From Bacillus sp. V5-8f (GTDB lineage: Bacteria > Bacillota > Bacilli > Bacillales > DSM-1321): DNA of 32,000 nt. Below, piece by piece: positions 2-25,028 of this stretch; the stretch's first letter is position 1, and every line of letters begins with the position of its first letter. The stretch is taken from NCBI RefSeq assembly GCF_002863565.1, contig NZ_PGUW01000024.1:229193-261192 (forward strand), written 5' to 3'. Under the pieces are notes generated by a model. The model ran no database searches, was not told the DNA's origin, and saw only the letters and a list, made by a program, of their open reading frames with translations. The position numbers and the translations under genes are program-made.

Positions 2-793
2 ATCGAAACCGTTACAAGACTCGCCGATAAATATGAATTTGGTGAAGTCGGCCGGATCCTTTACAACTTTATCTGGGATGATTTCTGTGATTGGTACATT
101 GAAATGGCGAAGCTTCCGTTATATGGAGAAGATGAGGCTGCCAAGAAAACGACCCGTTCAATCCTAGCATATGTCCTGGATAATACGATGAGATTGCTGC
201 ATCCTTTCATGCCGTTCATTACCGAGGAAATTTGGCAGAACCTGCCTCATAAAGGTGAATCCATCACAACAGCAGCTTGGCCGGAAGTGAATCCTGAGCT
301 AACTGATGCGGAAGCGGCTGAAGAGATGAAGCTCCTTGTTGAAATTATCCGTTCTGTCAGGAACATCCGCGCAGAGGTAAACACACCAATGAGCAAAAAA
401 ATCAAGCTGATTCTGAAAGCAAAGGATGAAGCCACATTAAGCAAGCTTCAGAAAAACAGTGCTTATATTGAGCGCTTCTGTAACCCTGAGGAATTGACAA
501 TCGGCACAGATGTTGAGGAACCAGGCCAGGCGATGACAGCCGTGGTTACAGGGGTGGAATTAATTCTTCCCCTTCAAGGCTTGATCAATATTGAGGAAGA
601 AATCAGCCGTCTAGAAAAGGAACTCGAAAAATTAAACAAAGAAGTAGAGCGCGTCCAAAAGAAATTAAACAACGAAGGCTTTGTAAAGAAAGCACCTGAA
701 AAGGTTATTGAAGAAGAACGTGCGAAGGAAAAAGATTACAGTGAAAAACGCGACACAGTCATCAGCAGAATAAACGAATTGAAACAGCTTTAA
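2..793 (+). CDS. valS: valine--tRNA ligase, C-terminal part (5' end outside the window)
   Basis: The frame of ORF 104..793 stays open back to nt 2 ([37 protein letters not shown]...). It has the C-terminal coiled coil typical of ValRS ([43 protein letters not shown]). A strong terminator follows, and the valS-folC neighbourhood matches B. subtilis. Confidence 0.9.
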
Positions 794-797
794 TTGT

Positions 798-835
798 AAG
801 AGGATGAACCTTGATGCGGTTCATCCTCTTTTTTC
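798..835 (+). terminator. Rho-independent terminator of valS
   Basis: Perfect 13-bp stem AAGAGGATGAACC (798-810) / GGTTCATCCTCTT (818-830), 7-nt loop, T-run through 834. Confidence 0.85.
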
Positions 836-1079: not shown

Positions 1080-1934
1080 TTACTGTACTAATTCTCCCTT
1101 AATATACCGCAGATACTCCCTAACAATGTTTATATCTGTCAGCACACTTAGCGTCCGGCTCCCGACAACATCTTCAATCTCATTCAACAAAAAGCTGCCA
1201 TCTTCGGAAAAAACAAAATCGACGCCCACCATGCCAAAATCCACAGTGTGAATGATCGTTTCTACAAGGCCTTTTTGTTTATTGGATAGTTCATAAAGTG
1301 AGGCATTGCCGCCTAAGCTGAAATTTGATTTAAAATCAGTATCCGATTCTCTCAGTACAGACGCAATGATTTTCCTGCCGACCACAAATACGCGTACATC
1401 CTTGCCGTAAACGGCAGGTTTTTGGAATATCCATTTGCCAGGCGATCCTTGTAACAAGTGCTCGTCATTTTGATTTTCAATTAGGTACACCTGTTTTCCG
1501 CCCCGGCCAGAAACTTCTTTAGCTACATAAGGATATGGAAGCAGTACTTCTTCCCGGCGGAAGTGGTCATAGCTGCCATATAGCGTATCAGCCATTGGAA
1601 TTCCAAGCCCGGCCATAAATTGATGTGTTTTCGCTTTGTTATTGCATATTTCTGAGACACATGAAGAATTAAAGCATCTTACACCGAGAAGCTCTAGTTG
1701 CCTTGTAAAAAAAGGATCAATTGTCCTTACGATTGCAAATGATGGAAGGGGGACATCTTTCCTTTGATGGAATAAGACCAGCTTTGAGTTAGCATGTCCC
1801 AATGTGAAATCTTCCCGGAAAAACAGGAAAAGCTTTATATTCATTTGGCTGGCTTCTTTAATCATCCAGTCAATATAAGACTTATTTCGCGAGGCATCTT
1901 GCTTTGAATAAATTAGCCATCCCTCTTCAGTCAT
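1080..1934 (-). CDS. RimK-family ATP-grasp ligase, divergent paralog
   Basis: 284-aa ORF with ATP-grasp blocks VAKEVSGRGGKQVYLIE, DVRVFVVGRKIIASVLRESDTDFKSNFSLGG and GMVGVDFVFSEDGSFLLNEIEDV. Its ATG overlaps the stop of the upstream paralog (ATGA at 1931-1934), implying translational coupling. Confidence 0.8.
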   Translation of the reverse strand: MTEEGWLIYSKQDASRNKSYIDWMIKEASQMNIKLFLFFREDFTLGHANSKLVLFHQRKDVPLPSFAIVRTIDPFFTRQLELLGVRCFNSSCVSEICNNKAKTHQFMAGLGIPMADTLYGSYDHFRREEVLLPYPYVAKEVSGRGGKQVYLIENQNDEHLLQGSPGKWIFQKPAVYGKDVRVFVVGRKIIASVLRESDTDFKSNFSLGGNASLYELSNKQKGLVETIIHTVDFGMVGVDFVFSEDGSFLLNEIEDVVGSRTLSVLTDINIVREYLRYIKGELVQ

Positions 1935-2842
1935 TGTGTTTTTTCCTTCTCTTTCTGCAAGATATAATCCATCATATAATCTGCTATATTTACTCCTGTT
2001 GCATGGTAGATATTTAACAAATGGGAATTTGAGTTCACTTCACATAGCAGTGGTCCATTTTCGCCAAACAACAGGTCTATACCTGCAAAATCGACACCAA
2101 GTATATCTGCGCACCTTATTGCCAGTTCGGCTTCTTCTGTAGTCGGGGAATATGGCAAGGTTTTTCCCCCGTTCGAAACATTAGCACGAAAATCATTTTC
2201 GGACACACGGAGCATCGAAGCGACAACCCTGCCCCCGACAACGTTCAATCGAATGTCCCTGCCCCTGCTGCTTTGGACAAACTCTTGGAGGATGAAAGGT
2301 GAATGGGCAATTTCTCTTACTTTTTCAATCAATGTCCTTTCGTTTTCAATAAGGTATACTTGTTGGCCAAATGAGCCGTACGCTTCTTTTATCACCAGAG
2401 GGTATCCAAGATATGAACCAATATTTCGGAAAGCCTTAAAATCATTCCGGGATATCCCTTCATATGTAAAAGGAGGAAAAATGGTTTTAGGCATTGGTAT
2501 ACCGTGGTTTGCGAGGGCATGGTGGGTCTTGGCTTTACTATCGCAAATATCAATGGCTTCGCTGCTATTATAAACGCTTAGCCCCATCAATTCTAAATGG
2601 CGGGCTAAAGGGATATCTTTATCCATATAAACGACAAAGTCGGGAAGTTTTTCTGCCTGTTCGCCCTTTAACCTGGCTACGCCATTATCTAGAACCGGCA
2701 TCAATTCTGTATTTCTGACGATAGCCGTTTTAACATTCTTTCTCTCCGCCGCATCCTTTATAAAAATTGCTAGTTCGGAAAATTTCTCTTGCTGCAAATA
2801 ACCGTTTACAATGATCCAACAGCTTTTTTGCGAATTGTCCAT
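1931..2842 (-). CDS. RimK-family ATP-grasp ligase (alpha-L-glutamate ligase-like)
   Basis: 303-aa ORF that matches the E. coli RimK signature blocks as I recall them: YPLVIKEAYGSFGQQVYLIE, DIRLNVVGGRVVASMLRVSENDFRANVSNGG, GVDFAGIDLLFGENGPLLCEVNSNS. An AAAGGAAG RBS lies upstream. Confidence 0.85.
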   Translation of the reverse strand: MDNSQKSCWIIVNGYLQQEKFSELAIFIKDAAERKNVKTAIVRNTELMPVLDNGVARLKGEQAEKLPDFVVYMDKDIPLARHLELMGLSVYNSSEAIDICDSKAKTHHALANHGIPMPKTIFPPFTYEGISRNDFKAFRNIGSYLGYPLVIKEAYGSFGQQVYLIENERTLIEKVREIAHSPFILQEFVQSSRGRDIRLNVVGGRVVASMLRVSENDFRANVSNGGKTLPYSPTTEEAELAIRCADILGVDFAGIDLLFGENGPLLCEVNSNSHLLNIYHATGVNIADYMMDYILQKEKEKTQ

Positions 2843-2941
2843 CTATGCTGCACTTCCTTTAGATAGTTACTTATTGTTAAAACTATTGTAAAATAAATCT
2901 TTACAGAAAGTAAGAAGTAGTGCAAGATTGGAGGCTTTCAC

Positions 2942-4258
2942 ATGAACAGAACCACGATGGCTGAAATAGAACAATACCTGATACAGAGGCAGATGAAGCT
3001 AGGAATGGATTTTGGCTTGTCCCGGATGGAAAAGCTTCTCGATTATCTTGGCAATCCCCATCTTAACCTTAAATTTATTCATATAGCGGGCTCGAATGGC
3101 AAAGGCTCAACATTGAATTTTATCAGAGAGATACTAATTGAGGCCGGTGTATCCGTAGGTGCCTTTACTTCCCCATATTTAGAAAGCATCAATGAACAAT
3201 TTATGATAAATAAAGAAATGATACATGATCGGGAATTTATTTCAATTTTTAATCAAATTGAAGAGGTTGTTGAGTTGATGGACAAGGAATCAAACGGGCC
3301 GACACAGTTTGAAATTTTGACAGCCATCGCTTTTATCTTTTTTAAAAGGAACGATGTTGACCTTGCCTTAATTGAAGCGGGACTTGGGGGCAGGCTTGAT
3401 TCGACGAACGTTGTTACCCCCATTTTGTCCATCATTACATCTATTTCCCTTGAGCATACCAATATCCTGGGAAATTCCATCGAAATGATTGCGCGGGAAA
3501 AAGCCGGCATAGTCAAGAAAGGAGTGACGATTATCAGCGGTGTGAACAACTCGCAGGCAGAACAAGTTATCCGACTGAAGGCTGAATCAGAGAATGCCCC
3601 TCTATTTCAACTTGGTAGGGAGTTTGCCGTAGAGGCTAGGAAAAACGAGGACACCTCACAGGCCTTCTTGTTTCGAATGGGCGAATATGTTCTGGAAAAT
3701 GTCCGGCTAGCAATGCTAGGAAAGCACCAGGCGGAAAATGCTTCATGCGCGTTAACGGCAATTAGGCTGATAAATGAACGCGACGACTTTTCCATTAATG
3801 AAGAAAGCATGCGAAAAGGGCTGTGCAGGGCAGCATGGAGGGCCCGTTTTGAACTCTTATCCAGAAGTCCGTTGATCATATTGGACGGTGCACATAACCC
3901 AGCGGGAATTTCCGTTTTAACGGAGACACTTCATTCCGCCTTTCCCGAAAAAAAATATCGCTTTCTTTTTACGGCGCTAAACGATAAAAACTATCAAGAG
4001 ATGATACAGCTCCTGGATCAAAATGCCGAAGAGGTTATCTTTACAGAAATTCCCCATGCCCGCGCTGCAAAAGCCGAGGAGCTTTATGAATGGAGTAAAA
4101 GCCGCCATAAAAAATGGATGAAAAACTGGCAAATGGCCATCGAAGAAGCCATGAAAAACCTGTCGGAAAGCGAAGCTCTTATTATTACGGGCTCCTTATA
4201 TTTTTTGGCGCTTGCAAGGCCTTATGCACAGGCTGTGCTTGAGGGAAAATTCAAATGA
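2942..4258 (+). CDS. folC: bifunctional folylpolyglutamate synthase / dihydrofolate synthase
   Basis: 438 aa with the Mur-ligase P-loop HIAGSNGKGST and LIILDGAHNPAGI. RBS TGGAGG lies upstream. The position after valS matches B. subtilis. Confidence 0.9.
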   Translation: MNRTTMAEIEQYLIQRQMKLGMDFGLSRMEKLLDYLGNPHLNLKFIHIAGSNGKGSTLNFIREILIEAGVSVGAFTSPYLESINEQFMINKEMIHDREFISIFNQIEEVVELMDKESNGPTQFEILTAIAFIFFKRNDVDLALIEAGLGGRLDSTNVVTPILSIITSISLEHTNILGNSIEMIAREKAGIVKKGVTIISGVNNSQAEQVIRLKAESENAPLFQLGREFAVEARKNEDTSQAFLFRMGEYVLENVRLAMLGKHQAENASCALTAIRLINERDDFSINEESMRKGLCRAAWRARFELLSRSPLIILDGAHNPAGISVLTETLHSAFPEKKYRFLFTALNDKNYQEMIQLLDQNAEEVIFTEIPHARAAKAEELYEWSKSRHKKWMKNWQMAIEEAMKNLSESEALIITGSLYFLALARPYAQAVLEGKFK

Positions 4259-4416: not shown

Positions 4417-5409
4417 TTGGTTTTAATCATCACAACAGGAATTGCTGTTGCTCTTGTTTCTTTTCTTGTACTACTCGTTCCAATCGGCCTGACGGGTGCT
4501 GGAAAAATGCTAGTCATAATTACGTGCACAATCGTAAGTTTAATTGGAATACTTGGCAGAAGCGTGTTTTCTTTATCGCAGCTCGCTTTATTTCAACTCG
4601 TTTTGGCTTTATTATTCACATACATTTTCTATAAAAGATTCCAATTGTTTCGTTTGGAAGAGGATACTGTTGATTTTGATTCCCAAGATAGGATGAAACC
4701 GTTTTATTCTCTTAAAGAACTTGAGGAAAAAGCAAAGTCTTCTACAACAATTGATGAATATTATTCCGTTCCAAAGAGGATAAAGTCAGATCCTTTGTAT
4801 GTGGAAGAATTAACGTCCACTATGTCTTCAATGGGCGATAATGAAACAGAAATTTATGAGGAAACAATGAATGAGCGCACCGGTATGGAAAAGAAAGACT
4901 ATCAAGATATGAATATTGGTGAAAAGCGAGAAAAAATGGTAGAAATACATAGTTCAAACCAAGATGCTTGTAATCTTAATCTGGAACATATCTATGAGAT
5001 CACAGATGTATTTGACATGGATAGCAGATTATCTGCATTAAACAAGCCGATTGACGCTGAGAACTTAGTAGAGCCAAACCCATATTATAGTGCGCATATA
5101 TTAGAGACAGCTAGTTCATTGGAAGATGGTGATTTAGATTTATTAATCGAGTCGAGGAGGATGGTTTCTCATAACATTGACGACTTCACAATCCTTGAGA
5201 GCTTTCAGGAAAATCAGAAGACGTTTTCATCAGCAGACGAAGCCAACGAACAACAAAATGAGGCCTTTCATGATACCGGAATGGATTTAAAGGATTTACA
5301 GTCCAATCTAACAAAAACACACAATAAATATTCGAATGAAGAAATAAACAGTATTTTTGAAGATTTAGAAGAACTTTATCTACGGAATAAAAGGAAAAAG
5401 AATGAGTAG
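4417..5409 (+). CDS. hypothetical membrane protein with a long acidic C-terminal region
   Basis: TTG start 7 nt after GGTGGGGG. The first ~75 aa form about three hydrophobic helices. The remaining ~250 aa are D/E-rich and low in complexity, with no domain I recognise. Confidence 0.55.
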   Translation: MVLIITTGIAVALVSFLVLLVPIGLTGAGKMLVIITCTIVSLIGILGRSVFSLSQLALFQLVLALLFTYIFYKRFQLFRLEEDTVDFDSQDRMKPFYSLKELEEKAKSSTTIDEYYSVPKRIKSDPLYVEELTSTMSSMGDNETEIYEETMNERTGMEKKDYQDMNIGEKREKMVEIHSSNQDACNLNLEHIYEITDVFDMDSRLSALNKPIDAENLVEPNPYYSAHILETASSLEDGDLDLLIESRRMVSHNIDDFTILESFQENQKTFSSADEANEQQNEAFHDTGMDLKDLQSNLTKTHNKYSNEEINSIFEDLEELYLRNKRKKNE

Positions 5410-5422
5410 GAGCACTCGATAA

Positions 5423-6757
5423 ATGAAGAATACAACTTCTTCCTATTTTAAATTCCTTCTTTTAATTTTAGCAGGAACGTTTTTTATCAGCCTTTTTTCT
5501 AAATTTGGAACCGAGGCCCAAAATGCCGTATTTCAATCTAATCAAAAGTTTGCTGACAAAACTTACATAGGTTCGGTAAATGTTGAAAATCTTACAAAAA
5601 AAGAGGCAAAAGAAAAAATAGAAAAAGCGGCTGCTGATTGGAGAAACAATGCAGATATAGCCTTCACGTTTGCCGATACAAAACTTAAGGTTCCTAACAA
5701 TCAAATTTCGTTTTTAATTGATGATTCAGTTTTTTCTGCAGCAAGCGGGATGGAAAATCCCCTTTTTGTTTCTGTTAACGAAAAGTTGATCGATGATCAA
5801 ATTAAAAAGCATACAAGCCAAACGTTGGTAACCAATATTGACATCAAGAAGTTGAAAAGGGAAATAAAGAGGCGAACCGGTACCTTGCCGAAAGAAAAGA
5901 TAGAGATTAGATTACTAGACTTTTTAAAAAAGGACTCACATTTAAAACAAGAAGTCCTTTCAAGTTCGATGATAAAAGTGGATGATCATGAGTACCTTGA
6001 TGCCTGGTTACAGGAGTCCAAGGAAATCAAAATCAAGGAAAATTCTAATTTCTCTTTTTTGGAATATTTAAGAAATGCTAAATTGGATTTTTCTGATGAG
6101 TTTCTGACATTGTCAGCTTCCTCTCTATATAAGGCAATATTAAATACGAATTTGCAAATCATAGAGAGGAATATAAGCAGGGAGCTTCCTGAAGGCATGG
6201 AACCTGGTTTTGAAGCAAAGATCAAACAGAATAGCATGGATCTGATTTTATATAATCCAAACGATTATGACCTGACTGTCAATTTTAGCTCTGATAAGAA
6301 AGGCTTTCTAAAAACAGATATTATTGGTTATAAAACGCCCACAACATATAACATTCGCCTGCAAAATAAAAAATACTTTAAACCAAAGCAAATCATTCAA
6401 TATGTTCCGGACATTACTCTTGTTAGTAAACCGGCCAATCATCCGGGTAAGCAAGGTGTCTCTGTCTCTATCTACCGGGAAATAACGGATTCAAATGGCG
6501 TAAACAAGGATTCTGTTTTTGTCTCTAACGATATTTACCTTCCGGTGAACGAAGTGGTTGTAAAGGAGATTCCTGCTTTGGCGGAACCACCGGATGCGGA
6601 ACCTGAGGATGCTGCCGCTACAAATGAAAATGGTGGAAATGCCATTGAAGATACCACTGGGACGAATGAGTCGGAAAAGTCACAAGCGGACGATATCGCT
6701 GATTCTAACGATAGGAGTGAAAACGAAAGTAATCTTTCTGAAAAATCCGGAGAATAA
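5423..6757 (+). CDS. VanW-like (YoaR-like) cell-wall-associated protein with an acidic tail
   Basis: N-terminal signal anchor (FKFLLLILAGTFFISLF). The block YIGSVNVENLTKKEAKEKIEKAA is typical of the region preceding VanW domains. The VanW-like core is divergent (NFSFLEY...SASSLYKAILNTNLQIIERNISRELPEGMEPGFEAKI...DLILYNPNDYDLTVNF). The last ~60 aa are D/E/S-rich. Confidence 0.55.
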   Translation: MKNTTSSYFKFLLLILAGTFFISLFSKFGTEAQNAVFQSNQKFADKTYIGSVNVENLTKKEAKEKIEKAAADWRNNADIAFTFADTKLKVPNNQISFLIDDSVFSAASGMENPLFVSVNEKLIDDQIKKHTSQTLVTNIDIKKLKREIKRRTGTLPKEKIEIRLLDFLKKDSHLKQEVLSSSMIKVDDHEYLDAWLQESKEIKIKENSNFSFLEYLRNAKLDFSDEFLTLSASSLYKAILNTNLQIIERNISRELPEGMEPGFEAKIKQNSMDLILYNPNDYDLTVNFSSDKKGFLKTDIIGYKTPTTYNIRLQNKKYFKPKQIIQYVPDITLVSKPANHPGKQGVSVSIYREITDSNGVNKDSVFVSNDIYLPVNEVVVKEIPALAEPPDAEPEDAAATNENGGNAIEDTTGTNESEKSQADDIADSNDRSENESNLSEKSGE

Positions 6758-6758
6758 A

Positions 6759-6798
6759 GCAGCAACAGGCTGACAATCAAATGTCAGCCTGTTGCTGC
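6759..6798. terminator. Hairpin between convergent genes (possible bidirectional terminator)
   Basis: Perfect 17-bp stem GCAGCAACAGGCTGACA (6759-6775) / TGTCAGCCTGTTGCTGC (6782-6798) with a 6-nt loop. It has no clean T-run on either side. Confidence 0.55.
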
Positions 6799-6800
6799 TA

Positions 6801-7745
6801 CTAATCTAAAGAGGTTGAACCGATAATCTCCCAGTAGGAATTACCATCTCCATTTGAATTCTTATTTAGTTCCCACACACCCTCACCTAAATGCTTACAG
6901 GAGGTTTCACTAGTTTTTTCCACGGTTAAAGGGAATAAATTTTCCGGCTTATGAATTTTTCCGTGAACACAGATCGACGCTCCATTTTTTATGCTGTTTC
7001 CTTGAAGCGAAACAGTTTCAAAAAGTGCATCACCGGCAATTTCAAGTCTTGATTCCTGGTTTAAAAATAAATCCCCACCTCTATAATAGAAATGGCCGTT
7101 TACTTTAAAAAGACCGTTGCTTGGCATATAGAGGCCTTGGTTAGCAACAATGTTTCCATTAATCACCAAATTTACAGTGGGGTTGATTCTAACTTCTGAT
7201 AGGAAATTAACATTTTTGTTATATGATGTATCGTCTAGATAATGGCTTTTATTCCAGTCTATTTGTTGATAAGAAGCACCTTTTGGATTTATATTTCCAA
7301 AGTCAAAACTCCCGGATCCATTCTTGCTAAGCGTAATCTTTTCGCTTTTCTCCATCCTATAGTCGCTTACAAATCCAATGCTACGATAAATAATCTCTAT
7401 TTTCTTATTCCCAATTTTTTTTATATTCGCCGTTTCGATTTTGTAATAATAAGTGGGATTTCTTGTAGACGGCGAATCCATATTTGGTAGTTCTTGATGC
7501 AAAAGCGCTATCGCTTCATCTGTATCAGATGGTAATGTGGGAACAATACTTTCGACAAGAGTCCTGTAATATATAGTGCCCATTTCAGTCAGGTTCGTTA
7601 ATTGAATCTTTTCCTCGGTTTTTCTATTCTGTACAGAGCTGTTTAAAACATTCGTTAGCAAAGTAACTGAGAAAACCCCTATTAGTGTGATGGTAAGTAG
7701 TACTATAATTAAGGTATATCCTTTTTCATTATTATTCCATTTCAT
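6801..7745 (-). CDS. PilX-like minor pilin / putative pilus-tip protein
   Basis: 314 aa. The N-terminus MKWNNNEKGYTLIIVLLTITLIGVFSVTLL is a prepilin-like hydrophobic helix without Glu5, as in PilX/ComGG-type minor pilins. RBS GGGAG lies 7 nt upstream. It is co-oriented with and 18 nt downstream of another pilin gene. Confidence 0.6.
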   Translation of the reverse strand: MKWNNNEKGYTLIIVLLTITLIGVFSVTLLTNVLNSSVQNRKTEEKIQLTNLTEMGTIYYRTLVESIVPTLPSDTDEAIALLHQELPNMDSPSTRNPTYYYKIETANIKKIGNKKIEIIYRSIGFVSDYRMEKSEKITLSKNGSGSFDFGNINPKGASYQQIDWNKSHYLDDTSYNKNVNFLSEVRINPTVNLVINGNIVANQGLYMPSNGLFKVNGHFYYRGGDLFLNQESRLEIAGDALFETVSLQGNSIKNGASICVHGKIHKPENLFPLTVEKTSETSCKHLGEGVWELNKNSNGDGNSYWEIIGSTSLD

Positions 7746-7763
7746 GTTTATGCTCCCAATGAA

Positions 7764-8246
7764 CTATTCATTGCTCCCTGCTTTCAAGTACCCATATACT
7801 TCCGTGATTTTTTTGGGGGGTTCCTCTGTTCCCTCAAACATTAAAATTTCCACCTTAACCTTAAATAGATTTAAGTTTCTCTCCTTAAATGACTGGCTAA
7901 CAGAAATGTCTGGGTAATAGCTTTTGTTATTTATTTCATAGGAGTAATAATTCGGATGGTCAGGGTCTTCTGGCAGTCCCAAAAATCGCTCTATACCTGT
8001 AAAAGATTGGTTTGTATTATGTACTAGATAATTAATGACAGACTCATTATTTGTAGTATTATAGAGGATTCTTTCCGCAATATTAACTGCCGAAAATTTA
8101 TCCTCCGTTTTAGTAGAAAAAGTGACCGAATTGGAGAAAACGGCAGAAAAAATTGTTATGACTATTCCTAAAATAGTAATCGAAACAAGGATCTCTATAA
8201 GAGTAAACCCCGTGTTCGACAGTCGTGATTTTGAATAATTCACCAA
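7764..8246 (-). CDS. prepilin-type N-terminal cleavage/methylation domain protein (minor pilin)
   Basis: Canonical class III signal: ...SNTG|FTLIEILVSITILGIVITIF. RBS AAGGTGA upstream. The TTG at 8246 or the GTG at 8243 could be the start. Confidence 0.8.
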   Translation of the reverse strand: MVNYSKSRLSNTGFTLIEILVSITILGIVITIFSAVFSNSVTFSTKTEDKFSAVNIAERILYNTTNNESVINYLVHNTNQSFTGIERFLGLPEDPDHPNYYSYEINNKSYYPDISVSQSFKERNLNLFKVKVEILMFEGTEEPPKKITEVYGYLKAGSNE

Positions 8247-8333
8247 ATTGTATCACCTTTTTAGCTTTTTATTCATTATAGTACATAATATAATTAGTCT
8301 AGGAAAAAAATTGAAGAAATTTGGGGAATAAGA

Positions 8334-9146
8334 ATGAAATGGAAGCGAATATGTGACGAAAAAGGACTAACCCTGATTGAACTGTTGGCAACTCTCACAA
8401 TTTCAAGTCTACTTATTGGCATTTCCTGGGGGATACTATCTGCTAGTTTTAATCAAAACAATAAAGCCCAATCCCATAATCTGTTACGGCAGGAAGCAAA
8501 TATAGCCATAACACAAATCAGGCAGCTTCATCATTTACAAAATTATTCGTTATGCTATGAAAATGATGAAATGATTTACCTAGACCTAAATAAATCCAGT
8601 CCATTAACCAGTGAGGGCTACAAATTTGCCAATATTTCATTTGAGAACGATCATAAGATTTTAACAAATACTAATTCATGTTTACATATTAATATCTCAA
8701 GTCCTCTAACAGTTGATTTTACTTTGATAGACAATCATAGTAATAGATTTGATCTGCAAACTACTATTGATAACATTGGAAACTACGGTAATACACCAAG
8801 CCCCGGGAAAGGAGAGAGCGAAACCCCCGATCCAGTTGAACAGCCAAACCAGCCGCCCATTCCTGGTGATGGTGATGAAGAACGTGAAGATGAAGACAAT
8901 GATAGAGATCGTGAAAATGAAGAGAATGATAGAGATCGTGATAATGAAGATAACCAGGAAGACCGTGATGATAGAGGCGATAAAGACGAACGTGAAGATG
9001 AAGATGAAACCGAAGGTAGAGACGATGATGGAGAGTATAAAGATAAAGATGATGATAAACAAAATGAACACGATCACGGTTGGGAACGGAATGATGAAGA
9101 TGGAATAGATTTTTTCCAAGATGGTGATAGGGAAGATGATGAGTAA
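8334..9146 (+). CDS. prepilin-type minor pilin with a hyper-acidic C-terminal tail
   Basis: DEKG|LTLIELLATLTISSLLIGISWGIL prepilin signal, a small globular part, then a Pro-rich linker and a D/E/R/N tail of about 115 aa. It is divergent from the two minus-strand pilin genes and leads into pilB. Confidence 0.75.
   Translation: MKWKRICDEKGLTLIELLATLTISSLLIGISWGILSASFNQNNKAQSHNLLRQEANIAITQIRQLHHLQNYSLCYENDEMIYLDLNKSSPLTSEGYKFANISFENDHKILTNTNSCLHINISSPLTVDFTLIDNHSNRFDLQTTIDNIGNYGNTPSPGKGESETPDPVEQPNQPPIPGDGDEEREDEDNDRDRENEENDRDRDNEDNQEDRDDRGDKDEREDEDETEGRDDDGEYKDKDDDKQNEHDHGWERNDEDGIDFFQDGDREDDE
8898..8951 (+). repeat. 27-bp in-frame tandem duplication inside the acidic tail
   Basis: AATGATAGAGATCGTGAAAATGAAGAG (8898-8924) / AATGATAGAGATCGTGATAATGAAGAT (8925-8951), encoding NDRDRENEE / NDRDRDNED. 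Confidence 0.85.
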
Positions 9147-9202
9147 GATGATTAAAGCTCAAGATTCGAAGATAAATATTATGAAGTACACAGGTGAAAA
9201 CT

Positions 9203-10849
9203 ATGTCGATTAAACGAAAACTCCTTGGAGATTTACTTGTTGATGCAGGAATTATTTCGGAAAGCCAGCTTCAGGATTCTTTAAGGCTGAAAAAAGATGG
9301 GCAAAAGCTTGGCGACGCACTCCTCGAGAGGGGATTAATCAACGAACGGCAGCTGGTAAAAGTGTTAGAATTCCAACTTGGAATCCCCCAGATCAACTTA
9401 TACAGGTATCCTGTGGATACGAATTTATTGGACTTAATTCCTAAAGAGTTTGCCTTTCGCAATGTGTTAATGCCGATTAAAAGAGATGGCAATCACCTTG
9501 TGGTTGCCATGTATGATCCGATGGATTATATCGCTCTTGATGATATGCGTTTATCAACAGGGTTGCAAATTTCTCCTGTTATTGCGACAAAGGACGAAAT
9601 TTTGTCTGCTTTACATAGACACTATAGTATGGCTGAAACGTTTGAAGAAATTGAAGAAGATTCGTTGAATGATGCTGATCTGGATAGTGAAGAAGCACCT
9701 GCTGTAAGGCTTGTGAACCAGATACTGGCGATGGGGATACAGTTGAAGGCCAGTGATATTCACATTGATCCACAAGAGGCGAGAATCCTTGTTCGCTATC
9801 GAGTGGATGGAATTTTGCGGACCGAGCGGATCCTTTCCAAGAATATATATAGCTTGCTCATCGCCCGGATCAAGATTATGGCAAACATGAATATTACTGA
9901 ATCCCGGCTTCCACAGGATGGACGGATAAAGCTTGATATAAACTCGATACCGGTAGATCTACGAATCTCATTATTGCCGACCGTGTATGGAGAGAAAGCA
10001 GTTATTCGTATCCTGGATTTATCAAACGTCTTGTTACATCTCACACAGCTTGGATTTAATAAAGTGAATCTGCAAACATTTTTCGGGTTGATTGAAAGGC
10101 CATCAGGAATGGTTTTAATTACAGGACCCACCGGATCAGGAAAGACATCCACACTCTATGGCGCACTAAATCATTTAAATAAGGAACAAGTGAACATCAT
10201 AACGGTGGAAGACCCTGTGGAATATCAACTGAAAGGAATAAATCAAGTTCAGGTGAACCCCTCCATCGGTTTAACATTTGCCAGCGGGCTACGCTCAATC
10301 CTAAGACAAGATCCCAACATTGTAATGATTGGCGAAATCCGTGATAAGGAAACGGCAGAAATCGCTGTACGCGCATCCCTCACAGGGCATTTCGTGTTTA
10401 GCACTCTTCACACAAACAGCGCACTGACAACGATTCCAAGATTGCTAGATATGGAGGTTGAGCCCTATTTGGTCGTTTCTGCTTTATCAGGAGTGGTGGC
10501 ACAAAGATTGATAAGAAAAGTATGTAAAGACTGCATGGTTGAATATACACCATCAGAAATGGAGAAAAACCTATTTCAAAAGCGTGGTATAAAGGTCGAT
10601 ATACTTTACAGAGGATCTGGATGCCCAAGCTGCCAAAATACCGGTTACAGAGGCAGAATGGCCATACACGAAGTATTAAATATAGATGAAAAAATCCAAT
10701 CGATGATGATGAATAATAAGTCGATTCAGGAAATAAAGCAATATACTATGCGAAATGGCATGATTTTTTTGCTTGATGATGGTTTGTTAAAGGCTAAAAA
10801 CGGCATGACCACAGTTGAAGAAGTTTTAAGGGTAGCGATACAGGATTAG
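9203..10849 (+). CDS. pilB: type IV pilus assembly (extension) ATPase PilB, GspE family
   Basis: Walker A GPTGSGKTS and the tetracysteine motif CKDC...CPSC. The N-terminal GspII/MshEN-like region has LGDLLVDAGIISESQL and KLGDALLERGLINERQL. ATG 9203 lies 6 nt after AGGTG; the ORF is open from GTG 9194. Confidence 0.9.
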   Translation: MSIKRKLLGDLLVDAGIISESQLQDSLRLKKDGQKLGDALLERGLINERQLVKVLEFQLGIPQINLYRYPVDTNLLDLIPKEFAFRNVLMPIKRDGNHLVVAMYDPMDYIALDDMRLSTGLQISPVIATKDEILSALHRHYSMAETFEEIEEDSLNDADLDSEEAPAVRLVNQILAMGIQLKASDIHIDPQEARILVRYRVDGILRTERILSKNIYSLLIARIKIMANMNITESRLPQDGRIKLDINSIPVDLRISLLPTVYGEKAVIRILDLSNVLLHLTQLGFNKVNLQTFFGLIERPSGMVLITGPTGSGKTSTLYGALNHLNKEQVNIITVEDPVEYQLKGINQVQVNPSIGLTFASGLRSILRQDPNIVMIGEIRDKETAEIAVRASLTGHFVFSTLHTNSALTTIPRLLDMEVEPYLVVSALSGVVAQRLIRKVCKDCMVEYTPSEMEKNLFQKRGIKVDILYRGSGCPSCQNTGYRGRMAIHEVLNIDEKIQSMMMNNKSIQEIKQYTMRNGMIFLLDDGLLKAKNGMTTVEEVLRVAIQD

Positions 10850-10860
10850 GAGGAACTCTT

Positions 10861-11901
10861 TTGAAGGATAGACTCGATTATATTTTGACAGCGGCATTTG
10901 AATTGGGAACTTCCGATATCCATTTAACTGTTGGTGTGCCGCCGATAATGAGATTACATGGTGAGTTAAAACATTATGGCAAGGAAAGTTTAAAGCCGGA
11001 AGATACCGAAGCAATGGCAAGGGCCATTATTCCGGACAACTTATGGCAGACATTTAAAGAAAAAGGGGAACTGGACTTTTCTTACGGAATACCAAGTGTC
11101 TCACGGTTCAGAGTAAATGCTTACCACCAAAGATCGTGTGTTAGTCTTGCAATAAGGGTTGTACCGACAGAAATCCCCACTTTGGAGCGGCTTAATCTGC
11201 CGGACATTCTAAAACACATTTCCGAGAAACCACAAGGCCTGGTCTTGGTCACAGGCCCCACCGGGAGCGGGAAATCTACAACACTAGCAGCCATGCTCGA
11301 TTATATTAATAAAAACATGAAACGGCATATCATTACCTTGGAAGATCCGATTGAATATCTGCATAAACACAGGTTAAGCGTGATAGATCAACGTGAAGTC
11401 GGGTTTGATACGCAAAATTTTGCAAACGGTTTACGGGCATGCCTTCGCCAGGATCCGGATATCATCCTGGTTGGCGAAATGCGTGATTTAGAAACGATTT
11501 CAACGGCAATCACAGCCGCTGAAACCGGGCATCTCGTGTTGGGTACCCTGCATACAACCGATGCGCCTTCCACCATTGATCGGATTATTGATGTATTTCC
11601 GGCGAATCAGCAGCCGCAGGTACGGGTCCAGCTCGCTTCCGTATTAACTTCAATTATTTCACAGCGGCTTTTTCCCACCACCGCTAAAAATGGCCGCGCG
11701 GCAGCAATTGAAATTATGATAAACAATTCAGCAATCCGGAATTTAATACGAAATGAAAAAATTCATCAGATACATAGTGTGATGCAGACAAGTAAGTCAA
11801 TGGGCATGCAGACGTTAGAAATGTCTATCAGGGATTTGGTAGATTCAAATATAATCGACCAGCAGGTTGCAGCATCATATCTTCAGGAAGGTGTTAGGTA
11901 A
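10861..11901 (+). CDS. pilT: type IV pilus retraction ATPase PilT
   Basis: 346 aa with Walker A GPTGSGKST and the PilT signature AIRNLIRNEKIHQI. TTG start lies 7 nt after AGGAGG. Confidence 0.9.
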   Translation: MKDRLDYILTAAFELGTSDIHLTVGVPPIMRLHGELKHYGKESLKPEDTEAMARAIIPDNLWQTFKEKGELDFSYGIPSVSRFRVNAYHQRSCVSLAIRVVPTEIPTLERLNLPDILKHISEKPQGLVLVTGPTGSGKSTTLAAMLDYINKNMKRHIITLEDPIEYLHKHRLSVIDQREVGFDTQNFANGLRACLRQDPDIILVGEMRDLETISTAITAAETGHLVLGTLHTTDAPSTIDRIIDVFPANQQPQVRVQLASVLTSIISQRLFPTTAKNGRAAAIEIMINNSAIRNLIRNEKIHQIHSVMQTSKSMGMQTLEMSIRDLVDSNIIDQQVAASYLQEGVR

Positions 11902-13109
11902 TGCCTGTTTTTCAATACCAGGGAAGGAATAAGACAGGTAAAAGAAAAAGTGGTAAAGTTATGGCTGAAAACCGCAAAGAAGCAGTACTGAGACTACGGG
12001 AATCAGGTGTTTCAGTCATATCCATCAATGAACTCAACGGAATTTTATATAAAGAAATTTCATTGGGTGGAAAAAAGGTTAAAAATAAAGACTTCATCAT
12101 CTATCTTCGCCAATTTTCCACACTATTGAAAGCTGGGGTTCCTATTGTGGAGGCCACGAAAATATTGGCACAGCAAACCTCCAGCAAGGTGCTCAAAAAA
12201 ACTTTGGCAGCAGTAGTGCAGAATCTTGAAGAAGGAAAACCTTACTCTGATGCAGCGGAAGAACAAAACGGTGCTTTCCCGCCGTTATTCACTAATATGG
12301 TACGTGCCGGTGAAGCAGGCGGAAACCTGGATGAAATTTTGGAACGAATGGCCGTCTACTTTGAAAAACAATATCGAACAAGACAAAAAGTAAAGTCTGC
12401 GATGATGTATCCTGCCACGGTGGGCATCATTTCTATCGTTATCGTAATTTTTCTGCTCTCGACCGTTGTGCCGGCATTTGCCGGCATGTTCGCCACTTTT
12501 GGAGGCGAGCTGCCATTAATCACTAGAATCGTAATGAGTCTTGGAAGCTTTTTCGGTTCCTATTGGTGGGTATTCCTATTATTAGCGATAGCTGTGTACA
12601 TCGGCGTTTATCTGCTAATATCAAACCGCAAAACCAAATATTTTTTAGACTATGTACTTTTAAAGTTACCATTGTTCGGCAGCCTGCTTCAAAAGGCTCA
12701 AATTGCACGGATGACCAGAACCCTCAGTTCCCTTTTTTCTAGTTCTGTGCCAATTTTACAGTCAATTATGATTGTAGAAAGGATATTAGGGAACGAAGTG
12801 CTGTCGAAAGTCTTAAGGGAAGCAAGAACTTCCATTGAAAAAGGCCAGTCAATGGCAGTTCCCATGGAAATTCACTGGGCGTTTCCTCCCATGGTCACCC
12901 AAATGATCGCAATCGGGGAAAAATCAGGGACGTTGGACTCTATGCTTGATAGAGTGGCGGACTTTTATGAAATGGAGGTAGACAATTCAACGGACCAAAT
13001 AAAATCTTTGATAGAGCCAATGATGATTGTCTTCCTTGCTTTTGTTGTCGGTGGTATAGTGGGAGCCATTGCTGTACCGATGTTTAGCATATTTGAAACA
13101 ATTAACTAA
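11901..13109 (+). CDS. pilC: type IV pilus platform protein PilC, GspF family
   Basis: 402 aa with duplicated GspF domains, three TM segments and an N-terminus (MPVFQYQGRNKTGKRKSG) typical of PilC. Its ATG overlaps the pilT stop by 1 nt. Confidence 0.9.
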   Translation: MPVFQYQGRNKTGKRKSGKVMAENRKEAVLRLRESGVSVISINELNGILYKEISLGGKKVKNKDFIIYLRQFSTLLKAGVPIVEATKILAQQTSSKVLKKTLAAVVQNLEEGKPYSDAAEEQNGAFPPLFTNMVRAGEAGGNLDEILERMAVYFEKQYRTRQKVKSAMMYPATVGIISIVIVIFLLSTVVPAFAGMFATFGGELPLITRIVMSLGSFFGSYWWVFLLLAIAVYIGVYLLISNRKTKYFLDYVLLKLPLFGSLLQKAQIARMTRTLSSLFSSSVPILQSIMIVERILGNEVLSKVLREARTSIEKGQSMAVPMEIHWAFPPMVTQMIAIGEKSGTLDSMLDRVADFYEMEVDNSTDQIKSLIEPMMIVFLAFVVGGIVGAIAVPMFSIFETIN

Positions 13110-24884: not shown

Positions 24885-25028
24885 GACTTCGCAACAAAGA
24901 CCAGAAATTTCACTACAAAATCAAAAAAACGCAACAAAGCCTATAAATTTCGCAACGAAAGGTTGTAGTTTCTCAACAAAATGTAAAATATCGCAACAAA
25001 GTTAAAAATCACACCAAATTACAAAGCC
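24885..25028. repeat. Degenerate array of about 20-bp repeats, TTTCGCAACAAAG orientation (7 units)
   Basis: Cores CGCAACAAAG 24890, CACTACAAAA 24911, CGCAACAAAG 24929, CGCAACGAAA 24951, CTCAACAAAA 24972, CGCAACAAAG 24992 and CACACCAAAT 25010, spaced 18-22 bp apart. Confidence 0.65.

Follow-up and report, generated by a model that had tools for sequence, protein, structure and literature searches.

The valS–folC junction of Bacillus sp. V5-8f holds two genes for RimK-like ATP-grasp ligases, and their place beside folC raises the question of what the two enzymes ligate and whether the acceptor is folate. In the window, by which we mean the whole 32,000-nucleotide stretch of DNA analysed here, the 3′ end of valS (2..793, forward strand), which is also the neighbour in relatives, is followed by an intrinsic-terminator-like stem of 13 pairs with a T tail (798..830, forward strand) that separates valS from folC. 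Gene B (1080..1934, reverse strand) encodes a RimK-like ATP-grasp ligase of 284 amino acids, as judged from its open reading frame, profile matches, motif, structural model and clade, and gene A (1931..2842, reverse strand) encodes a RimK-family ATP-grasp ligase of 303 amino acids, as judged from its open reading frame, profile matches, motif and clade. The open reading frame coordinates agree with the preliminary description, which had placed two RimK-like genes between valS and a divergent folC, and the ATGA overlap of A and B at 1931–1934 is confirmed in the frames. The folC gene (2942..4258, forward strand) encodes a protein of 438 amino acids that is assigned by TIGR01499 (403.8 bits, cut-off 162.65), the P-loop, and the metal and dihydropteroate-loop residues. 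A and folC start divergently, 99 bp apart (2843..2941), with ribosome-binding sequences visible on both strands. This interval had been called a shared control region; a consensus promoter scan of 2843–2941 finds zero promoter-like sites, and we describe it simply as a gap.

A and B are the sole RimK-like genes, and the window folC the sole FolC gene, found by searches of this genome. The nearest named relatives of A and B are Peribacillus proteins, and the genome is Peribacillus-like. A phage origin of the pair was considered and rejected, as a search of viral contigs returned zero relatives. An imperfect tandem repeat with a 20-bp unit in about 4.6 copies lies at 898–994, in the interval that separates the valS terminator from the end of gene B, and a similar 21-bp repeat array is present at 24888–25007. 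The region after folC (4417–13109) encodes a membrane-anchored acidic protein without assignment, then a VanW-like protein (weak Pfam match), and contains a series of genes for proteins that begin with prepilin-type N-termini; one of these (8334–9146) has an Asp/Glu-rich repeat tail.

A and B share 33% identity over 230 amino acids. A scores above the TIGR00768 cut-off (206.6 vs 143.4 bits) and matches PF08443 with 137.9 bits (cut-off 21), and B is under the TIGR00768 cut-off (120.7 bits) and over that of PF08443 (67.8 bits). Both proteins miss the equivalog cut-offs of RimK (NF007764, 331 bits; A 104.5, B 51.2), MptN (NF040720, 350 bits; A 119.3, B 61.4), LysX/ArgX (TIGR02144, 275.6 bits; A 150.1, B 71) and CofF (TIGR04443, 300 bits; A 70.1, B no match). 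In the tree, A and B each form one well-supported clade that spans Bacilli and Clostridia and stands apart from LysX-, MptN- and MyfB-like and other RimK-like proteins. B-type genes are present in 44 of 251 Bacillales genomes and in 17 of 331 Clostridia genomes sampled; searches phylum-wide and in small classes return mostly LysX, MptN-like or other RimK subtypes. A–B fusions occur in some relatives (P0121, P0122, P0130 and P0182). In some Clostridia, A carries a fused N-terminal domain of about 250 amino acids (L347, L348, L349; P0273–P0276), and long A homologues with PF00075 (RNase H) suggest that some A fusions may be incidental.

The motifs quoted earlier for A and for B are each present in the respective sequence. 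A has the canonical E-x-N metal/acceptor motif and a DKD motif at residues 74–76. B has E-x-E in place of E-x-N, which is kept in more than 90% of 120 relatives, and the subfamily motif NEIEDVVGxR is conserved in hundreds of relatives. The view that B is altered at its catalytic blocks therefore stands for the Asn-to-Glu change in NEIED, which is the sole consistent one, because the Lys of DFKSN is atypical and most B relatives carry Arg there. K100, K139, D179, R181, R195, N204, D239 and E252, as well as R70, are conserved in B and are invariant or nearly so in its relatives. The predicted structure of B (pLDDT 96) shows a confident RimK/ArgX fold, with ArgX and RimK as top structural matches (TM about 0.8). 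B occurs without A in 6 of 251 Bacillales genomes, and in 9 of 251 A is present but a strong B match is not; three of these nine have a short, divergent B-like neighbour. The conserved catalytic residues, the occurrence without A and the confident fold model led us to reject the idea of B as a decayed or non-catalytic copy, and the proposal of a non-catalytic partner is not supported, since E-x-E marks a conserved subfamily able to stand alone. In Pseudomonas RimK, N262, the position of which is taken by Glu in B, contacts the terminal glutamate (PMC10092738), and therefore a different acceptor geometry of B is more likely than lost activity.

The linkage to folC that had been noted for the pair is conserved. 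About 70 of the 80 closest loci, in many Bacillaceae genera, have the pair at the valS–folC junction, mostly divergent from folC and at times in line with it. In Terribacillus-type loci, folC and the pair stay together several genes away from valS. Linkage alone could reflect one old insertion. Other folate genes are neighbours farther afield: purU precedes the pair in Paenibacillus thermotolerans (L071), two fused clostridial genes lie upstream of fhs (L113, L138), and the pair faces fmt in another locus (L117). A folate gene near the pair is absent in many loci outside Bacillaceae, including most clostridial loci. In several genera an FGase-like hydrolase and a protein of about 620 amino acids join the pair (L099:3558-6099, L071, L187, L190, L192, L198, L305, L307, L346 and L210), and in one genome (G586) an FGase-like hydrolase gene lies ahead of folC without the pair; the hydrolase is possibly a tail-trimming partner.

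The FolC protein itself is altered at one position. Codon 86 of the window folC (3197..3199, forward strand) is CAA and encodes Gln. FolC proteins usually carry the omega-loop ERI Arg at this alignment position, and so do the two solved structures that were aligned, 1o5z and 1fgs. The window FolC retains the P-loop, E145, D153, H172, K187 and the M22–R28 dihydropteroate loop. Arg-less FolCs as a group keep the P-loop, these four residues, the residues of the C-terminal glutamate site and the G-L-x-R loop; constraint is relaxed at W12, the aromatic residue at 79, E85, W299 and Y420. The kept loop aligns with residues 28–32 of E. coli FolC, which have been described as a dihydropteroate-binding region (PMC13408713). 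In the literature searched, no statement was found on the role of the ERI arginine. We take F75, R82 and Y414 to line the folate site of L. casei FPGS and place Arg86 of FolC there; yeast Fol3, presumably a DHFS-only enzyme, likewise presumably lacks the ERI Arg.

Loss of this arginine goes together with the ligases. In named loci, none of the 70 FolCs encoded next to the pair has Arg, and the residues that take its place vary widely. Arg is absent in 38 and kept in 5 of the 43 Bacillales genomes with A and/or B. Of the 89 that have a single FolC and no RimK-type gene, 1 lacks Arg and 88 keep it; among non-carriers that do possess a second FolC, Arg is absent in 3 and kept in 10. When exceptions were sought among non-carriers by picking the lowest-scoring FolCs, the apparent ones proved to hold A alone or an Arg-bearing second FolC. 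Arg is lost as well where the pair is unlinked to folC (G533, G574, G638, G601, G632 and G713), and congeners with no A/B match retain it (G015, G018, G630, G582 and G614). The relation is one-way: Arg loss is almost always accompanied by A, B or a second FolC, and carriers may keep Arg. Since carriers with intact Arg exist (5 in Bacillales, 3 in Clostridia and 7 of 9 in other Bacillota), the pair does not force the FolC change. An exception that counts against the relation is G583, which has an Arg-less FolC (L309, 9878–11158) but in which neither a RimK-type gene nor another FolC was found; this genome is 97% complete in 170 contigs. In some Alkalihalobacterium, a second Arg-less FolC-like gene takes A's usual place upstream of B (L298:6954-8228 and L299:6716-7981, from G656 and G683; also L050).

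The independence of this co-change depends on the tree used. The ValS tree shows 14 changes of Arg state, and its roughly 9 independent pairs, every one in line with RimK presence, give a sign-test p of about 0.004; these pairs could overstate independence because the Arg-less folC and the ligase pair may have moved together in Bacillales. On a FolC tree that includes Clostridia and leaves the trait columns out, there are 12 changes, 8 of them forced by strong branches, and about 5 pairs run in the same direction with 0 opposite (p about 0.06). A Bacillales-only FolC tree gives 3 pairs (p 0.25), which are too few contrasts.

A further pattern concerns folC2, a divergent FolC paralogue with a GSKGKGS-type P-loop and an intact ERI motif but without the GLxR and TxFE motifs. 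In genus g339, at the same site beside an Arg-less FolC, B (G578, G538, G668 and G695) alternates with an Arg-bearing folC2 (G641 and G610). The motif pattern makes folC2 a candidate FPGS-only enzyme. Genus g12 retains FolC, folC2 and both ligases, and the genome of the window has no folC2 match. Loci with folC2 include L029:6115-7467, L072, L099, L207, L209, L155, L156 and L224, and some genomes without a RimK-type gene carry folC2 in addition to a normal FolC.

Clostridia were sampled through 16 of the 17 B carriers found in the 331 genomes, together with 14 non-carrier controls; here folC is not near the pair. Seven carriers have no folC match, six have an Arg-less FolC and three keep Arg, and all 14 controls have an Arg-bearing FolC (Fisher test p 5e-6, which ignores kinship and is not relied on). 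A search at E 0.001 in five of the folC-less carriers returned only Mur-ligase matches. No folP match was obtained in any of the 8 folC-less genomes tested, and folP is present in all 7 tested Bacillales genomes with an Arg-less FolC. The folC-less genomes, having no folP match either, would therefore need tail extension and not a dihydrofolate synthase. The six clostridial carriers with an Arg-less FolC likewise gave no folP match, so that a pure dihydrofolate synthase fails to explain their FolC unless pteroate is salvaged. One genome (G778) has two folC copies, of which the one sharing an operon with folP lacks Arg and the one that follows valS has it (L362:5402-8128 and L363:5266-9284), a natural case of such a split. 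A CofE-like (PF01996) protein is encoded in 4 of 5 folC-less clostridial genomes tested, a count that covers folC-less genomes alone, and this protein could be the actual FolC substitute there; one genome (G776) has the pair with neither a folC nor a CofE-like match. CofE-like proteins of about 400 amino acids are found at L359:795-1982, L360:6642-7853 and L361:6275-7471. Clostridial FolC open frames of about 670–690 amino acids (L331, L337 and L340) suggest a C-terminal fusion to another enzyme.

On the pattern of residues and gene content, we consider it somewhat probable that A and B are active ligases that build the folate tail in place of the FPGS activity of FolC. FolC would be reduced mainly to a dihydrofolate synthase, which adds the first glutamate onto dihydropteroate, and its FPGS activity would be lost or weakened; A and B would then add glutamates to the (tetrahydro)folate tail. 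Each ligase would convert a carboxylate of the terminal glutamate to an acyl phosphate, which would then react with the amino group of the incoming glutamate, the presumed donor, by the route of RimK, MptN, CofF and MyfB. A and B probably differ in the carboxylate (alpha or gamma) or the chain length that they accept, and either can occur alone. A literature search, with most subscription journals outside its scope, found no paper on the pair, on RimK-like folate ligases or on the FolC co-change.

The preliminary description had suggested that the pair extends or caps the gamma-linked tail with alpha-linked residues. The link to folate glutamylation has good comparative-genomic support in the conserved linkage, the FolC co-change and the alternation with folC2. 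Replacement suits these data better than an alpha cap placed on a normal gamma tail from FolC, since the FolC that goes with the pair has changed or yields no match. A broader form, in which FolC, a CofE-like enzyme or folC2 makes a short gamma primer that A and B extend or cap with alpha-linked glutamates or another amino acid, so that Arg loss merely shortens the primer, is rather unlikely. The many carriers with an intact FolC, the full set of four genes in genus g12 and the CofE-like genes of folC-less carriers are consistent with a primer, but the genome with the pair and neither a folC nor a CofE-like match does not fit one, and an add-on cap predicts neither the loss of the FolC residue, nor the loss of folC, nor the alternation of B and folC2 at one site. 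The chemistry itself has precedent: the glutamates attached by characterised RimK, MptN and CofF are alpha-linked (PMC8141765, PMC4741518; for CofF, according to its NCBIfam name), and alpha links in the distal E. coli folate tail are cited in PMC1971073. With replacement and primer extension taken together, it is quite probable that the folate tail is the substrate of A and B.

A non-folate acceptor, such as S6, a small carrier peptide, free poly-alpha-glutamate or a cell-envelope precursor, would make the folC link an old insertion passed on, by descent or by transfer, along with a folC allele that drifts. The arginine is lost, or folC is missing, in genomes where the pair is unlinked, and Arg is retained in non-carriers (88/89 in Bacillales, 14/14 in Clostridia), all of which this explanation leaves unaccounted for; moreover, the RimK, LysX, MptN and CofF cut-offs are missed by wide margins. 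The family does act on protein C-termini, with RimK and LysX/ArgX as the nearest structures, folate genes are missing from the neighbourhood in many loci outside Bacillaceae, and the FGase-like hydrolase and the large uncharacterised protein stand beside the pair in some loci. The S6 protein of this genome ends in EEE, which neither shows nor excludes S6 glutamylation, and a search of the genome for LysW-type carriers, as open reading frames ending in E[DE]WGE, found none, which speaks against a carrier of that type. We regard a non-folate acceptor as distinctly unlikely. It is highly improbable that the altered FolC and the pair make another glutamylated small molecule (e.g. a pterin or aminobenzoyl-glutamate derivative) in cells that run on monoglutamyl folates, since the only FolC of folP-positive Bacillales must supply dihydrofolate synthase and B alternates with a folC2 whose ERI motif is intact, even if an Arg-less FolC is retained in clostridial carriers without a folP match and the module of several genera includes a hydrolase gene.

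If they replace the FPGS activity of FolC, A and B would form a class of RimK-like coenzyme polyglutamylases acting on folate. They resemble RimK, the S6 alpha-L-glutamate ligase (PDB 5zct, 4iwx, 7qyr), in the ATP-grasp fold and in the catalytic Lys, Asp, Arg and Glu, and the family alignment suggests that B keeps the Arg matching R64; unlike RimK, they are two paralogues linked to folC, far under the equivalog cut-off, and B has Glu at the N262 position. The RimK-like MptN and MyfB glutamylate C1 coenzymes, and MyfB elongates a long chain (PMC8141765). As RimK-like enzymes that add glutamate to a coenzyme tail, MptN (H4MPT), CofF (F420-2) and MyfB (methylofuran) are close parallels, but A and B score under their cut-offs, lie in clades separate from the MptN/MyfB-like proteins and have folate as the proposed acceptor. 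LysX/ArgX shares ligation to a glutamate carboxyl and provides the best structural match of B (3vpb), whereas A and B form separate clades under its cut-off and have no LysW-like carrier in the genome searched. A non-homologous substitute for FolC is already represented by Chlamydia FolC2 (CT611, CofE-like, COG1478) (PMC1971073). That enzyme likewise takes FolC's role but has a CofE-type fold and stands in for FolC entirely, while in the present case FolC, though altered, would stay for the first step; a search of the window's genome found neither a homologue of it nor any other CofE-like partner. The two FolC activities also reside on separate proteins in split systems (the FPGS-only FolC-like enzyme of L. 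casei, and separate enzymes in eukaryotes), but the elongating enzyme here would be an ATP-grasp and not a Mur-type ligase.

Taken across Bacilli and Clostridia, there is about an even chance that RimK-like ligases repeatedly took over from FolC in a widespread ATP-grasp route to folate polyglutamates, with tails that are possibly alpha-linked or mixed and with the ERI Arg marking FPGS-competent as opposed to DHFS-only FolC. A comparative study was unable to derive a motif separating mono- from bifunctional FolC (PMC1971073), and the ERI Arg would, if this is true, provide such a motif. The same route would fill the pathway hole in folC-less Clostridia and would offer candidates for the type of enzyme behind the alpha-linked tails described in chemical work on E. 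coli folates. An FolC/FPGS-type or, rarely, a CofE-type enzyme is held to be required for folate polyglutamylation, and ATP-grasp ligases would be a third solution.
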